DNA of 64,000 nucleotides from Escherichia phage SF. A program made the position numbers and the translations under genes. Under the pieces are notes generated by a model. It worked only from the letters and a program-made list of their open reading frames with translations, was not told the origin of the DNA and did no database searches. Shown piece by piece: positions 4,020 to 9,990 of the stretch. The stretch lies in sequence record MH359124; one strand, 5' to 3'. Each line of letters opens with the position of its first letter. Within the stretch, counting starts at the first letter, position 1.

Positions 4020-5462
4020 GTGGTAGAAATTATTTTGTCTCATCTAGTATATGACCAGGCTTATTTTTCTAAGGTCTGGCCTTATATGGATTCTGAGTAT
4101 TTTGAGCGTGGACCGGCAAAAAACGTCTTTAAAATTATAAAGAGCCACGTTAACGAATATAATGCAATGCCATCTATCAATGCGTTAAAGGTGGCTTTAG
4201 ATAACAGTTCTTTAACTGAAGCCGAATACAAAGGAACTTCAGACCTAATTGAAAAATTGGCTGATACTCCTGAAGACCACGAATGGTTGGTTAAAGAAAC
4301 TGAGAAATATGTCCAGCAAAAAGCGATGTATAATGCTACATCAAAAATCATTGAGATTCAGTCTAATGCTGAACTACCTCCAGAACAACGTAACAAGAAA
4401 ATGCCTGACGTAGGAGCTATTCCTGATATTATGCGTCAAGCACTTTCAATTTCGTTTGATAGTTATGTTGGGCATGACTGGATGGAAGACTACGAAGCAC
4501 GCTGGCTTTCTTATCTGAACAAAGCACGTAAGGTCCCGTTCAAATTAAACATTCTGAATAAAATCACTAAAGGTGGTGCTGAAACTGGTACACTGAATGT
4601 TTTAATGGCTGGTGTTAATGTTGGTAAATCTTTAGGCCTTTGTTCACTTGCTGCAGATTATCTTCAAACAGGTCATAATGTTCTTTATATTTCCATGGAA
4701 ATGGCTGAAGAAGTTTGTGCTAAGCGTATAGATGCAAACATGCTTGACGTATCACTTGATGATATTGATGATGGTAACGTATCTTATGCCGAATATAAAG
4801 CCAAGATGGAAAAATGGCGTTCAAAAACAACATTAGGACGTTTAGTAGTTAAACAGTATCCTACTGGTGGAGCTAATGCTAATACATTCCGTGCATTGCT
4901 TAATGAGTTAAAACTTAAGAAGAACTTTGTGCCATCTGTAATCATGGTTGATTACTTAGGTATTTGCGGGTCTTGTCGTATCAGAGTTTACACTGAAAAT
5001 AGTTACACATTAGTTAAAGCTATCGCAGAAGAACTTCGTGCATTAGCAGTAGAATCTGAAACAGTTCTATGGACTGCAGCTCAAGTAGGACGTGCAGCAT
5101 GGGATGCTTCGGATATGAACATGAGCGATATTGCAGAATCGGCAGGTTTACCAGCAACGGCAGATTTCATGTTGGCCGTAATTGAAACCGAAGAACTTGC
5201 ACAAGCTGAACAACAACTTATCAAACAAATCAAATCACGATATGGTGATAAGAATAAGTGGAATAAATTCCTGATGGGTGTACGTAAAGGCAACCAGAAA
5301 TGGATTGAGATTGAGCAAGAAGGCATGAACACACCTAACACAGTAAATGAAAACGCAGGTGCTCAGATGCGTCAGGCAGAGGTGAATCGTACGGAACGCG
5401 TAGGTAAAGCCAAAGCAACACGTGCTGACCTAGATAGCTTAGCCAACGAGTTAAAATTTTAA
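4020..5462 (+). CDS. 41: gp41 replicative DNA helicase (DnaB-like)
   Basis: 480-aa ORF, GTG start after AAGGAG; N-terminus MVEIILSHL and Walker A GVNVGKS match T4 gp41. Confidence 0.95.
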   Translation: MVEIILSHLVYDQAYFSKVWPYMDSEYFERGPAKNVFKIIKSHVNEYNAMPSINALKVALDNSSLTEAEYKGTSDLIEKLADTPEDHEWLVKETEKYVQQKAMYNATSKIIEIQSNAELPPEQRNKKMPDVGAIPDIMRQALSISFDSYVGHDWMEDYEARWLSYLNKARKVPFKLNILNKITKGGAETGTLNVLMAGVNVGKSLGLCSLAADYLQTGHNVLYISMEMAEEVCAKRIDANMLDVSLDDIDDGNVSYAEYKAKMEKWRSKTTLGRLVVKQYPTGGANANTFRALLNELKLKKNFVPSVIMVDYLGICGSCRIRVYTENSYTLVKAIAEELRALAVESETVLWTAAQVGRAAWDASDMNMSDIAESAGLPATADFMLAVIETEELAQAEQQLIKQIKSRYGDKNKWNKFLMGVRKGNQKWIEIEQEGMNTPNTVNENAGAQMRQAEVNRTERVGKAKATRADLDSLANELKF

Positions 5463-5466
5463 TAAA

Positions 5467-5490
5467 AAGGAGACTTCGGTCTCCTTTCGG
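5467..5490 (+). terminator. Rho-independent terminator after gene 41
   Basis: AAGGAGAC-TTCG-GTCTCCTT (UUCG tetraloop) then TTTCGG. Confidence 0.6.
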
Positions 5491-5491
5491 G

Positions 5492-5521
5492 GTTTACATC
5501 TTCCTCTAGGCATGATATGAT
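5492..5521 (+). promoter_or_regulatory. Early sigma70-type promoter
   Basis: GTTTAC, 18-nt spacer, TATGAT; drives ORF 5551. Confidence 0.55.
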
Positions 5522-5550
5522 GTACTTACACAAACCAAGAGGAAAACATT

Positions 5551-5925
5551 ATGAATATGTCTCAAGCAATTTTTACTGCAATCACCGAAAACACAACTGT
5601 TGAAGTAGTTTCTCCGCTGGCAACCTACGTTATTCTTGCTCCTAAAACTATTGTATCTCGTATGGAAAACATGGGCAAACGTATCGTACAAATTGTTGGA
5701 GCTGGAAATCAAAAACTTGATTATCTGCGAACCATCAAAGCTTATGAACATTTCCAACTCGAAAAAGGTTCTCCTATCCAGGTAGAACTCGTAAATGGTG
5801 ATATCGTTCGAGCAATGTTCCATCATTTCTATGCATTGAATGACCCATCTAAAGCTGTTCGTTTAATTGCATACGACGCAAACCAAACCGAAATCAACGC
5901 AGATATATCTAAATTACATTTTTAA
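5551..5925 (+). CDS. Hypothetical protein
   Basis: 124-aa ORF with own early promoter and SD; no T4 counterpart recognised between 41 and dmd. Confidence 0.6.
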   Translation: MNMSQAIFTAITENTTVEVVSPLATYVILAPKTIVSRMENMGKRIVQIVGAGNQKLDYLRTIKAYEHFQLEKGSPIQVELVNGDIVRAMFHHFYALNDPSKAVRLIAYDANQTEINADISKLHF

Positions 5926-5954
5926 GTTTACTTCTCCAGTAGTTGTGTTATGAT
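5926..5954 (+). promoter_or_regulatory. Early promoter with stem-loop (PeSL-like)
   Basis: GTTTAC, 17 nt, TATGAT; -10 enclosed by IR CCAGTAGTTG/CAACTACTGG (5936..5972); drives ORF 5981. Confidence 0.65.
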
Positions 5955-5980
5955 AGACCTATCAACTACTGGAGAACAAA

Positions 5981-6298
5981 ATGAAAACCATCGACTGTAA
6001 AGCAGAATTTAAGATTTTTTATCACGGATCAAGTAGTTCAGCTAACATAGAAAATATGCTTTGTCCTCCTGAGGAAACAGGAGTTCTGTCTGAAACTGGA
6101 CGTAAGAAAAACTTGGATCGTGTATTCTTTACTGAAGATATCGGTTTAGCAAAGATTTATGCAGGACGAGCAGCACGCTCTTGTGGAGGTGAACCACGTC
6201 TCTATCGAGTAATTTCTCCGGTAGACGTAGTTCAAATGAATAATACTAAAGGTGCTACAGTTTATCACGCTGAATGGGCATTTTGCGAGGAAATATGA
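5981..6298 (+). CDS. Hypothetical protein, possible minimal ADP-ribosyltransferase (Arr-like) fold
   Basis: 105-aa ORF; N-terminal FYHGS motif and later hydrophobic Y-x-V-x-SP segment reminiscent of Arr-family; weak, unverified. Confidence 0.55.
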   Translation: MKTIDCKAEFKIFYHGSSSSANIENMLCPPEETGVLSETGRKKNLDRVFFTEDIGLAKIYAGRAARSCGGEPRLYRVISPVDVVQMNNTKGATVYHAEWAFCEEI

Positions 6299-6483
6299 GC
6301 AAATTAACTAAAGTTACTTTTATCGGTTGGTTTAAAAGCGGCGAGATGTTCACTAAAGATATCATGTTATCAGGTGATCGCGAAGAAATCGAGTGGGTTG
6401 CGGTACAACTTGCCGAAGTGAACAACGCATTAGTTAAAGCATTTGTTAATGACGAGAAAGTTTTCGAAGCAGATTTTCGATAA
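6295..6483 (+). CDS. dmd: Dmd, discriminator of mRNA degradation (antitoxin against RnlA/LsoA)
   Basis: ORF track 6274..6483; start at ATG 6295 gives 62 aa; VTFIGWFKSGEMFTKDIM...ALVKAF closely resembles T4 Dmd. Confidence 0.75.
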   Translation: MSKLTKVTFIGWFKSGEMFTKDIMLSGDREEIEWVAVQLAEVNNALVKAFVNDEKVFEADFR

Positions 6484-6496
6484 TTTTAAAATAACC

Positions 6497-6526
6497 GTTT
6501 ACAAGCACCACATACTGTGTTACTAT
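6497..6526 (+). promoter_or_regulatory. Early promoter
   Basis: GTTTAC, 18 nt, TACTAT; drives lipoprotein ORF 6555. Confidence 0.55.
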
Positions 6527-6554
6527 CTTTCTATCAACTACAGAGGAAATTGAA

Positions 6555-6923
6555 ATGAAAAAATTAATCGCTTTAGCAATGGTATTTGGATTAACCGGAT
6601 GTGGTGCCCATGGCTTTATCCCTAATAACGTTGGCCAACTGATTTACAATCCGAATGTTAAACAGTATGAACAACCTAAAGTTGAAGTGGAAGACCCGGT
6701 TACTGTAGGTAATCGAATGATTCAAGCTGATGCTCATGCTCAACGTTATCGTGATTCTGATACTGTGGCTGTGTCAAAAGAACAACGCGTTAAAGAACAT
6801 TGCTTACAGGCTACTGAAATCGCATTCATTCGCTATGTTGAAACAACTGGTAAAGAGCCTACCCAGAAACAAATCGCAAATAACTACGTCCAGTGTATTG
6901 AACGTTTAAACAAATTTAATTAA
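6555..6923 (+). CDS. Putative lipoprotein
   Basis: 122-aa ORF; signal peptide with lipobox LTGC; own early promoter. Confidence 0.65.
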   Translation: MKKLIALAMVFGLTGCGAHGFIPNNVGQLIYNPNVKQYEQPKVEVEDPVTVGNRMIQADAHAQRYRDSDTVAVSKEQRVKEHCLQATEIAFIRYVETTGKEPTQKQIANNYVQCIERLNKFN

Positions 6924-6926
6924 TTG

Positions 6927-6956
6927 GTTTACGCCAAAGTTAAAACAAGATATTAT
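6927..6956 (+). promoter_or_regulatory. Early promoter
   Basis: GTTTAC, 18 nt, TATTAT; drives ORF 6985. Confidence 0.55.
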
Positions 6957-6984
6957 AAACATAACAAATCAAGAGGAAATTAAC

Positions 6985-7233
6985 ATGGAATTATTCGTAG
7001 CTAGTTCAGTAGCGGTTTTAATCGCAGGTATTGGTTCAATCATCATTTACATGTTGCCTTGGGTAATCGCACTTATTCGTGGCACAAAAAGCACAACAGC
7101 AATCTTCTTTGTATCTTTACTCTTTAACTGGACGATGATTGGTTGGATTGGAACTTTAATTTGGTCTATCGTTGCCGAAAAGAAATCTGCCCAGCAGCCT
7201 CAACAAGTAATTATTATTCGCGAAAAAGAATAA
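6985..7233 (+). CDS. Small two-TM membrane protein
   Basis: 82-aa ORF, two hydrophobic helices; own promoter. Confidence 0.6.
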   Translation: MELFVASSVAVLIAGIGSIIIYMLPWVIALIRGTKSTTAIFFVSLLFNWTMIGWIGTLIWSIVAEKKSAQQPQQVIIIREKE

Positions 7234-7237
7234 ACTT

Positions 7238-7267
7238 GTTTACATTATAGATGGACTATAGTATAGT
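7238..7267 (+). promoter_or_regulatory. Early promoter (PeSL-like)
   Basis: GTTTAC, 18 nt, TATAGT inside IR GGACTA..TAGTCC; drives sp. Confidence 0.65.
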
Positions 7268-7296
7268 AGTCCTATCAAATTAACTAAGGAGTTAAA

Positions 7297-7590
7297 ATGA
7301 AAAAGTTATCATTGGCAGCAATCTTACTTGCAGTATCATGTGCACCAGCTCCAGTTACGGCAGGTTATGATAAAGACCTCTGTGAGTGGTCAATGACTGC
7401 AAATCAAGAAGATGTTGAACAACAAATCTTCTCTGATATCATGAACATCACTAAACGAGACCGTCCTAATATGGTTAATAAAGTTGTTGAACAACTTAAG
7501 TCTGGCGGTATCATGCAGTACAATTATGTTTTGTATTGTGACCCTAATTTCGATAACAAAGATATCGTAACCGAAATCACAGGTGAATAA
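7297..7590 (+). CDS. sp: Spackle periplasmic protein (superinfection exclusion / lysozyme inhibitor)
   Basis: 97-aa ORF; signal peptide; GYDKDLCEWSMTA...SGG.MQYNYVLYCD matches T4 Sp. Confidence 0.8.
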   Translation: MKKLSLAAILLAVSCAPAPVTAGYDKDLCEWSMTANQEDVEQQIFSDIMNITKRDRPNMVNKVVEQLKSGGIMQYNYVLYCDPNFDNKDIVTEITGE

Positions 7591-7591
7591 T

Positions 7592-8242
7592 ATGATTTAT
7601 TATATGCACAAAAATGCGCCGTTTAAATATGGTAAATTTCCTAATGCACAATGTTATAATATAACGCCTAATGAAAATAATAACGGATATCATATTGGTG
7701 TAATTTTTGTAATTGTTAAAGATAACGAAATCGTTGCCTGGGCAGATTTTAAAGGTACAACGTATGATGTTAATCCTGTGCCTTTCACATATTACAATAT
7801 AATGGATTTGGCATATGATTATAATTGGTTTAATCATGACGCGTTGGCTCATATTGAAGGTGTAGGATTTGACATCTCTTATTCTAGATATTCATTATGT
7901 CCTATGAGCCGAGCTCACGGTAAAGATGCATCATATCTTTCATTTCGGAAACGTGTAAACTTCAAACGTAGTACAGAGTATGTCGGTGGACTCTTTGTTA
8001 AAGATAATAAAATAACCCGTATTAGTTATCCTTTAAGTGTAGGTCAAAAAGATGTTGATGTTGATTTAGACTTAACTGAAAATAACATTAATCGTATTGC
8101 TTCTGTATATTTTGATATCGATGAAAAAATTGTAGTGTGTGGATACGAATTACCACCTGAAGAAAAGGCTGAAGCAATTGAAGTTGAATTAGAAATTTCT
8201 GTTGATGACCAAATATTTAATGCATTTATGAATCGAGGTTAA
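7592..8242 (+). CDS. Hypothetical protein (61.2-like position)
   Basis: ORF track 7583..8242 (GTG); ATG at 7592 preceded by AGGTGA. Confidence 0.6.
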   Translation: MIYYMHKNAPFKYGKFPNAQCYNITPNENNNGYHIGVIFVIVKDNEIVAWADFKGTTYDVNPVPFTYYNIMDLAYDYNWFNHDALAHIEGVGFDISYSRYSLCPMSRAHGKDASYLSFRKRVNFKRSTEYVGGLFVKDNKITRISYPLSVGQKDVDVDLDLTENNINRIASVYFDIDEKIVVCGYELPPEEKAEAIEVELEISVDDQIFNAFMNRG

Positions 8243-8243
8243 A

Positions 8244-8441
8244 ATGACTACTGCAATTTGCACTGGTTCCAAAATTAGTGTTTTTACAAGTTTTGAAGAT
8301 TATGAAGTTGTTTCAAAACACCAATACCATATTAGCGTAAAAGCTAATGACGGTGTAATTTGGAATATTCCACAGTATGAAGGCACTACATATGAAGTCA
8401 AAGATATAAATGGTGACAAAGCAATCTTTGTAATTGATTAA
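8244..8441 (+). CDS. Hypothetical protein
   Basis: 65-aa ORF tightly packed between neighbours. Confidence 0.5.
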   Translation: MTTAICTGSKISVFTSFEDYEVVSKHQYHISVKANDGVIWNIPQYEGTTYEVKDINGDKAIFVID

Positions 8442-8460
8442 ATATACTCAGGAGGTACCT

Positions 8461-8928
8461 ATGGGTATTATTAACACTGCAATAGATTCTGTTTATGCAT
8501 ATAAGTTTATTCGACTAATGCAAAAACCTTTTACCGAATGGAAAGCATACGAAGCCAAAATCATCGATGAACGTGGAAGTGTTCTTAAACGTCCTTCTAC
8601 TCCAGAAGAGAAAGCGGCTTATACACCTTTTCATGCTTCAGTTCGTTCAATGAAGCGAATGATGAGCACTGTTCCAGGTCTTAATGGAATGGCCTCAATG
8701 ATGTCTGCCTGGAGTGCTGTAGCTTCACGCTATAACATTACGGAAGAACAACAGAAAGAAATATTTAAAGAACTCCCTTTATTTGAGGATATGGTTGCTG
8801 GTGATTCAGGTGGCAGCCCTCAAGCTATTGCATCAGGAACAACTACAGGTGCAGTCGTAAATAAAGGCCCAGAACAAATTCCTTCCAAGAAAAGAAAGCG
8901 AATTAAAGTAAATATTAATAAGTTGTGA
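8461..8928 (+). CDS. Hypothetical protein (61.1-like position)
   Basis: ORF track 8434..8928; ATG 8461 preceded by GGAGG. Confidence 0.6.
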   Translation: MGIINTAIDSVYAYKFIRLMQKPFTEWKAYEAKIIDERGSVLKRPSTPEEKAAYTPFHASVRSMKRMMSTVPGLNGMASMMSAWSAVASRYNITEEQQKEIFKELPLFEDMVAGDSGGSPQAIASGTTTGAVVNKGPEQIPSKKRKRIKVNINKL

Positions 8929-8967
8929 TATGATGGCCTTATTAATTTAAGGCCTCTGGAGAATACT

Positions 8968-9990
8968 ATGGCTGAATGGATAGATAATGAATTTGCTTAT
9001 CGTGCGTTTTCTCACCTACCTCGTTTTAGACAAATCAATAATTCAAGCACATTTAAATTAACATTTCGTTGTCCAGTTTGTGGCGACTCCCAGACCGATG
9101 CAATGAAAGCTCGCGGATGGTATTATGGCGGTACTCCTGGTAATGTACATTGTTATAATTGTCAATACCACAATACAATTTCCGGATACTTAAAAGAGTA
9201 TGATGAAGAGCTTTATCGCGAATACCTAATGGAAGTTCGTAAAGAAAAAGCTAGAATGGAACCAAAGATTGAAAAGGTTCCTGAACATAAACCAGAACCG
9301 GAGAAAAAGACTATAAATTCTTTGCCGTCTTGTTCTCGTCTGGACAAGCTGCCTGAAGAGCATCCTATTGTGAAATATGTTAAGTCTCGATGCATTCCTA
9401 AAGAATCATGGAACAGATTATGGTTCACATTAGAATGGCCTAAATTGGTCAACAAGATTCAACCTGGTACGTATAAGAAAGAGATTCCCGAACCACGTTT
9501 AGTGATTCCTATTTTTAATAAAGACGGGAAGGCTGAGTCATTCCAAGGACGTGCACTTCGTAAAGATGCTCCTCAGAAATATATCACTATTAAAGCGTTC
9601 GAGTCTGCAACAAAAATTTATGGTGTTGAACGTGTTAAGGAAGGAGACGTCTGGGTAATGGAAGGCCCTATTGATAGTTTATTCATACCCAATGCAATCG
9701 CTATTACAGGCGGCTCAATAGATTTAGATGTGGTACCATTTAAAGAACGTCGGGTATGGGTAATGGATAATGAACCTAGGCATCCAGATACTATAGCTCG
9801 CATGAAGCGATTAGTTGATGCAGGCGAACGTGTTATGTTCTGGGACCGAGCTCCATGGAGATCAAAGGATGTGAACGATATGGTAATGAAAGAAAATGCA
9901 ACACCACAAGAAATTTTAGAATATATGAAACAGAATATTTCAAGTGGGTTGCATGCTAAAATGAGATTATCTCGTTATTCTAAGATTTAA
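8968..9990 (+). CDS. 61: gp61 DNA primase
   Basis: 340-aa ORF; zinc-ribbon CPVCGDS..CYNC and Toprim region match T4 gp61. Confidence 0.95.
   Translation: MAEWIDNEFAYRAFSHLPRFRQINNSSTFKLTFRCPVCGDSQTDAMKARGWYYGGTPGNVHCYNCQYHNTISGYLKEYDEELYREYLMEVRKEKARMEPKIEKVPEHKPEPEKKTINSLPSCSRLDKLPEEHPIVKYVKSRCIPKESWNRLWFTLEWPKLVNKIQPGTYKKEIPEPRLVIPIFNKDGKAESFQGRALRKDAPQKYITIKAFESATKIYGVERVKEGDVWVMEGPIDSLFIPNAIAITGGSIDLDVVPFKERRVWVMDNEPRHPDTIARMKRLVDAGERVMFWDRAPWRSKDVNDMVMKENATPQEILEYMKQNISSGLHAKMRLSRYSKI

Follow-up and report, generated by a model that had tools for sequence, protein, structure and literature searches.

Three successive open reading frames on the + strand, encoding proteins of 122, 82 and 97 aa, occupy positions 6555–7590 of the 64 000 nucleotides of Escherichia phage SF (record MH359124) that we analyzed and refer to here as the window. 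An earlier reading of the letters alone (the original prediction) had described them as early genes, each with its own promoter, for a lipobox lipoprotein, a small inner-membrane protein and Sp. It had also proposed that the neighbors of sp may extend an exclusion or envelope-remodeling module, because Sp acts in superinfection exclusion in T4, a role that is reviewed in the literature (PMC6832632). The question raised by this locus is which proteins the two upstream genes encode, and whether both of them take part in exclusion.

Identity of the three genes

Over 2.9 kb, the region from 5400 to 8300 shared 98% identity with many genomes of Mosigvirus (RB69-like, Tevenvirinae), and it is highly probable that the cluster is the RB69-type (Mosigvirus) arrangement of imm.1, imm and sp, which are known early genes of T-even phages. 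In the RB69 record (AY303349) the gene order is dmd, 61.4, imm.1, imm, sp and 61.2, and newer Mosigvirus records label the cluster genes 'DUF5481', 'immunity' and 'spackle'. As RB69 and hundreds of further records carry annotations of the three genes, the cluster is already known; the arrangement is an ordinary one, annotated in RB69 since 2003, which the original prediction had missed. It had likewise missed two identities that emerge from sequence comparison, namely that the protein with two membrane segments is the orthologue of T4 Imm and the lipoprotein the homologue of T4 Imm.1. Pairwise identity to the T4 counterparts was 33% for Imm.1 (E 3e-19), 65% for Imm (over the whole length, E 3e-37) and 66% for Sp. 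A search of viral contigs for related loci returned seven, each of the Mosigvirus or the Tequatrovirus type. None of the three proteins had a match in PADLOC or NCBIfam, and an Rfam scan of positions 5400–9000 gave a single sub-threshold chance match (mir-2010), which lay outside the cluster.

The features of the locus are listed in Table 1. Upstream of the cluster are the gene 41 helicase (ending at 5462), two small ORFs and dmd, the start of which was taken from the AV109 annotation; downstream are 61.2, which begins one base past the sp stop, further small ORFs and the gene 61 primase. Dmd is an antitoxin against RnlA/LsoA-type toxins. The exclusion genes of the window sit between two counter-defense genes, and in RB69-type phages imm and sp, the classical T-even exclusion genes, are found side by side between dmd and adfA.

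Table 1. Positions of genes and early-promoter motifs in and around the imm.1–imm–sp cluster of the window
Feature	Position	Strand	Basis
dmd (antitoxin, discriminator of mRNA degradation)	6295..6483	+	PF17587 Dmd 2.7e-19, phrog_2102 3.5e-32
Early-promoter motif before imm.1 (GTTTACA-17-TACTAT)	6497..6526	+	motif match
imm.1 homologue, 122-aa predicted lipoprotein, lipobox LTG↓C16	6555..6923	+	PF17578, phrog_1754
Early-promoter motif before imm (GTTTACG-17-TATTAT)	6927..6956	+	motif match
imm, 82-aa superinfection-immunity membrane protein	6985..7233	+	PF14373, phrog_1039
Early-promoter motif before sp (GTTTACA-17-TATAGT)	7238..7267	+	motif match
sp (Spackle, gene 61.3), 97-aa precursor	7297..7590	+	PF25676, phrog_1586
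61.2/adfA (anti-DarT factor A)	7592..8242	+	PF23813 AdfA 2.7e-120

The second gene product matched the Pfam family Imm_superinfect with 57.2 bits (cut-off 27.9; 1.5e-15) and the PHROG family 'immunity to superinfection' at 9.9e-31, and was 98.8% identical to RB69 Imm. As the original prediction had stated, it is a small membrane protein: the Kyte-Doolittle profile displayed two hydrophobic stretches (about residues 1–34 and 40–63) with the short basic loop RGTKST between them, and the protein has no Cys. It is encoded once in the window and at one place per genome in each Mosigvirus record listed. A census found imm in 1039 records, including sets of 152+1 and 502 that match the Imm.1 sets given below.

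The assignment of the third gene to sp was borne out by a match to T4_Spackle of 145 bits (cut-off 27; 1.1e-42) covering residues 1–96 of 96, by a match to the corresponding PHROG family at 2.9e-42, and by a match to the PDB entry 6x6o (Protein spackle; E 1.4e-39), with 7cn6 also matched. The hydrophobic N-terminus contains a signal sequence ending VTA↓G, in which VTA↓GYDKD aligns with AMA↓GYDKD of the T4 protein, and the pair Cys29 and Cys81 is the same as in T4 Sp. In T4, Sp is exported and loses its first 22 residues, as determined by N-terminal sequencing (PMC7650644); cleavage after residue 22, the disulfide and the inhibition of the gp5 lysozyme have been demonstrated, and the two proteins form a 1:1 complex (PMC7650644, PMC7677548). 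The window protein is most likely a precursor with a 22-residue signal peptide that yields a mature protein of 75 aa, which in the periplasm would inhibit the tail lysozyme gp5.

Imm is the other known superinfection-exclusion protein of T4 (PMC7677548, PMC6832632). It resides in the plasma membrane, and its molecular mechanism is poorly understood even in T4 (PMC6832632). There, imm and sp bring about exclusion by blocking genome entry, not adsorption, and have a part in both stable lysis inhibition and the resistance of the cell to lysis from without (PMC6832632). Because the window proteins are 65–66% identical to those of T4 and keep all diagnostic features, Imm and Sp of the window very probably do the same.

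The signal peptide of Sp also fits the lipobox pattern (AVSC15; positions 7297–7341, residues 1–15), seven residues before the signal-peptidase I site. Similar motifs occur in the Sp proteins of T4 (LASC; L003:2259-2552, – strand) and CHI14 (ISSC; L022:3970-4257, – strand). Since periplasmic T4 Sp is cut after residue 22 (PMC7650644), this conserved lipobox-like motif seems to be unused, at least in the soluble fraction. Profile cross-matches between Sp and Imm.1 (E about 0.008) were rejected, as we judged them to reflect signal-peptide similarity.

The first gene product matched DUF5481 with 38.4 bits (cut-off 27) and its PHROG family at 1.8e-28. In T4, the Imm.1 ORF lies directly upstream of imm and has the equivalent lipobox LAGC. 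The N-terminus of the window protein, MKKLIALAMVFGLTGC, fits the PROSITE PS51257-type lipobox pattern, in which Cys16 would be the residue that is lipidated, in agreement with the lipoprotein reading of the original prediction. Imm.1 has one N-terminal hydrophobic segment and further Cys residues at 83 and 114. We sampled the lipoprotein family in ten phage genomes representing nine Tevenvirinae genera; the lipobox L[TASL]GC was present in all ten, and in alignments of the wider family C83 and C114 were invariant and C16 nearly so. By the +2 rule, residue +2 being Gly17 and not Asp, Imm.1 is probably sorted to the outer membrane.

Using tblastn, we found Imm.1 homologues in 655 phage records, of which 153 were of the Mosigvirus type (at least 95% identity) and 502 of the Tequatrovirus type (~33%). 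Word-indexed protein searches returned 3 and then 15 proteins, and an exhaustive profile search of 1.84 billion representatives yielded 8 matches, 3 of them below 1e-10, which points to a small family confined to phages. One metagenomic homologue (P0002, 122 aa), 46–48% identical to Imm.1 of Mosigvirus and T4, has LAGF, in which Phe replaces the lipobox Cys, and may be a soluble periplasmic variant.

An AlphaFold2 model of Imm.1 built from 16 sequences had a mean pLDDT of 67 and was confident only for residues about 70–120 (pLDDT >90 for 80–120). It consists of a helical hairpin (H48–98 and H104–120) carrying Cys83 and Cys114, preceded by ~45 N-terminal residues of low confidence that include a linker of ~30 residues after the anchor. 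A Foldseek search of BFVD and PDB with this model returned only Imm.1 homologues or non-significant matches, every PDB match having E >4; the fold search was uninformative because a helical hairpin is too simple. A PDB sequence search with Imm.1 gave no match, and a search of the literature on imm.1 and DUF5481 found nothing relevant and no functional evidence.

Early promoters and gene order

We then considered the claim that each gene has its own promoter. The early-promoter consensus of T4-type phages is TTTACW-N17-TAYWAT (PMC4122927). The sites before imm.1, imm and sp are intergenic, lie on the coding strand and match GTTTAC(W)-N17-TAYWAT-like hexamers. Using the strict pattern GTTTAC-N18-TANNNT, we found 14 sites in the 64 kb, compared with 1.02 expected from shuffled sequences. 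All 14 were on the + strand, which fits a single long region of rightward early transcription, and three of them fell in the three short intergenic gaps of the cluster, one in each. The full set of strict motifs starts at 5492, 6497, 6927, 7238, 11123, 17123, 27838, 28347, 31826, 33735, 54765, 55948, 57354 and 59478. All three cluster motifs are kept in RB69 and AV109, and the strict pattern recovers two of them in other Mosigvirus loci; the motif at 6497 is kept in RB69, AV109 and 308Ecol101PP. The ATG codons of imm.1, imm and sp are preceded by the ribosome-binding sites GAGGAAA, GAGGAAA and AAGGAG, respectively. These features agree with the original prediction of three consecutive genes under separate promoters; to judge from the motifs, imm.1, imm and sp would each be transcribed from an early promoter of their own.

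Two symmetrical elements were also observed in this part of the window. The palindrome GGACTA-N8-TAGTCC at 7253–7272, which is present in RB69 too, overlaps the –10 hexamer of the sp promoter. At 5927–5981, an inverted repeat of 19 nt (89% complementary, 17 nt spacing) extends across an early-promoter-like site before the ORF at 5981–6298, and is similar to the PeSL (promoter-plus-stem-loop) elements known from T4-type phages. The sub-threshold mir-2010 match of the Rfam scan came from this repeat.

The position of imm.1 and imm differs between T4 and the window. The T4 order is 43, imm.1, imm, 42 and, separately, dmd, 61.4, sp, 61.2, so that imm.1–imm is ~6 kb from sp, whereas imm and sp adjoin in the window. 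In Mosigvirus, the gap between 43 and 42 contains genes for a phosphosugar isomerase, a nucleotidyltransferase, a HAD protein and a peptidase U32, and no imm. The motif at 6497 is similar to the T4 imm.1 promoter (GTTTACAAG...GGTACTAT), and promoter and leader of imm.1 are alike in Mosigvirus and T4 (GTTTACAAG...TACTAT...CTATCAACTAC). This likeness suggests that the cassette moved together with its promoter, and we infer a relocation of imm.1 and imm in the Mosigvirus lineage. Promoter-mediated modular shuffling has been described for T4-type phages (PMC2839356, PMC4122927), and the new site, being bounded by early promoters, fits such a process. T4, T2 and T6 have a single early promoter, located before imm.1, and no counterpart of the motif at 6927; their gap from imm.1 to imm is only 7–11 bp.

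Among the ten representatives, the lipoprotein gene directly follows gene 43 in nine. When members of the wider family were identified by their PHROG or by the family profile, they were neighbors of imm in Merlin (Moonvirus), AnYang (Dhakavirus), CJ20 (Gaprivervirus) and S16 (Gelderlandvirus). The lipoprotein gene stands directly after gene 43, with no imm alongside, in four of the ten genomes (three genera): PM2 (Mosugukvirus), PEi26 and CIP9 (both Kanagawavirus) and CHI14 (Winklervirus). There it is followed by an arabinose-5-phosphate isomerase cluster. In these four (about 2950–4150 in L017, L018, L020 and L019, respectively), the lipoprotein gene overlaps the start of the isomerase/sugar-nucleotide cluster, the content of which resembles that of the Mosigvirus 43–42 gap.

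In Serratia phage CHI14, Imm was undetected in the 126 of 171 kb scanned (1–80,142 and 125,001–171,175, comprising all early regions; best E 0.21); Sp and the lipoprotein were present. In PM2, we asked whether the 80-aa gp044, located right before gene 42, could be a displaced Imm, and rejected this because the protein did not match the Imm profile.

Is Imm.1 part of exclusion?

The suggestion that the neighbors of sp belong to an exclusion module holds for Imm, through its family match and its identity to T4 Imm; for Imm.1 it did not hold in the same way, as comparative genomics lends weak support to a link with exclusion. The alternative that at least one of these ORFs or promoters is a chance feature and is not expressed has next to no probability: all that speaks for it is the general reservation that both kinds of feature were called by computation. 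The three ORFs all match curated families far above the cut-offs and are kept in hundreds of phage genomes, and the promoter motif is enriched ~14-fold, occurs on one strand only and keeps its position. It is unlikely, though supported by several observations, that Imm.1, tethered to the outer membrane and reaching across the periplasm, Imm in the inner membrane and periplasmic Sp make up a three-layer barrier and thus a true three-gene module. Imm.1 and imm adjoin in six genera and in both gene orders, the lipoprotein gene leading in T4, Mosigvirus, Merlin and S16, and imm leading in AnYang and CJ20. They moved jointly to the new Mosigvirus site, they are co-transcribed in T4, where, as in T2 and T6, they share one promoter and lie 7–11 bp apart, and their genome counts match exactly in Tequatrovirus (502) and Mosigvirus (153). 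The joint move and the adjacency in both orders could reflect functional coupling rather than mere synteny. However, PM2, PEi26, CIP9 and CHI14 keep the lipoprotein without imm beside it, CHI14 apparently lacks any imm within the part scanned, and imm of the window has a promoter motif of its own. Moreover, in work by Lu and Henning from 1989, plasmid-borne T4 imm alone reportedly conferred exclusion. The preferred place of the lipoprotein gene directly after gene 43 also means that its adjacency to imm may be inherited synteny. On balance, we regard a working partnership of Imm.1 with Imm as rather unlikely, and its being an unrecognized third envelope component of T-even exclusion or of resistance to lysis from without, a helical hairpin tethered to the outer membrane and cooperating with Imm and possibly Sp, as distinctly unlikely. 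If it were such a component, this would explain why it traveled with imm to the sp locus of Mosigvirus.

We further considered whether Imm.1, as an outer-membrane lipoprotein, acts like the T5 Llp and Cor lipoproteins, which would mean that it blocks further adsorption by binding, on the periplasmic side, the outer-membrane receptor used by the phage itself. Llp and Cor are small phage-encoded lipoproteins that are made early and face the periplasm (PMC9586334); Imm.1 is, like Llp, a small early lipoprotein with a disulfide (PMC9586334), and it is clustered with exclusion genes. The imm.1 gene is nevertheless linked to gene 43 or sp and never lies next to receptor-binding genes, its only Pfam match is DUF5481, and the Foldseek searches of PDB and BFVD gave no similar structure. 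The receptors differ among the T-even phages, being OmpC/LPS for T4, Tsx for T6 and FadL for T2, yet Imm.1 is 98% identical in the three, which makes receptor masking of the Llp kind unlikely. Exclusion in T4 moreover blocks genome entry, not adsorption (PMC6832632). Taken together, we consider such a role very improbable.

The reading that we prefer, and the most economical one, is that Imm.1, a conserved lipoprotein of Tevenvirinae that is predicted to be exported, probably has an independent function and owes its place to inherited synteny. The significance of the locus beyond correct annotation is little, and it raises one modest question, namely whether T-even exclusion has a third component, Imm.1, anchored in the outer membrane.

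Proposed working of the cluster and comparison with known systems

The homology, export signals, promoter motifs and synteny observed in this analysis are compatible with the following course of events. Soon after infection, host sigma-70 RNA polymerase would transcribe imm.1, imm and sp rightward, each from its own early promoter. The steps for Imm and Sp are modeled on the T4 proteins, given the 65–66% identity. Imm would insert in the inner membrane, which the DNA of T-even phages adsorbing later could then not cross. Sp would be exported and, after removal of the 22-residue signal peptide, become a helical protein of 75 residues held by a disulfide bond. This mature form would bind the lysozyme domain of the gp5 tail spike of an incoming phage, which would prevent both the local digestion of the cell wall and lysis from without. 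Between them, Imm and Sp would provide the classical superinfection-exclusion functions of T4. Imm.1, to judge from its sequence and model, would consist of a lipid anchor in the envelope, a flexible tether of ~30 residues and a helical hairpin stapled by a disulfide. It would be an independent envelope protein whose place by imm was inherited from an ancestral order 43–imm.1–imm–42. In the Mosigvirus lineage, imm.1, the promoter that belongs to it and imm would have traveled jointly to their place upstream of sp, probably as sugar-modification genes took over the 43–42 gap.

Compared with known systems, Imm.1 shares with T5 Llp and Cor the character of a small phage lipoprotein; no sequence or fold similarity was found between them, and Imm.1 shows neither linkage to receptor-binding genes nor variation with receptor use. 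The imm.1–imm pair of T4 corresponds more closely, as it likewise consists of a lipobox lipoprotein followed by Imm with two hydrophobic segments and has a similar imm.1 promoter and leader. It differs from the window in its site (between 43 and 42 rather than between dmd and sp), in the lack of a promoter between imm.1 and imm, and in the sequence of Imm.1, which is only 33% identical and has an extra Cys pair in T4. T4 Spackle (gp61.3; PDB 6x6o, 6xc0, 6xc1, 7cn6 and 7cn7) agrees with Sp of the window in length, signal peptide and Cys29/Cys81, and its gene is upstream of 61.2 in both phages, while its upstream neighbor is 61.4 in T4 and imm here.

In RB69, 61.4 lies between dmd and imm.1, and the window is without it, a presence/absence difference of ~206 bp. 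This gap, which corresponds to window positions 6483–6555, to L013:1098-1310 of RB69 and to L001:2589-2801, also varies among other Mosigviruses, some of which carry 61.4 as RB69 does; alignments of the window with the genomes that have the gene break into two parts, with ~206 additional bases in those genomes. Apart from this difference, the RB69 locus has the same genes, order, strand and promoter motifs as the window.
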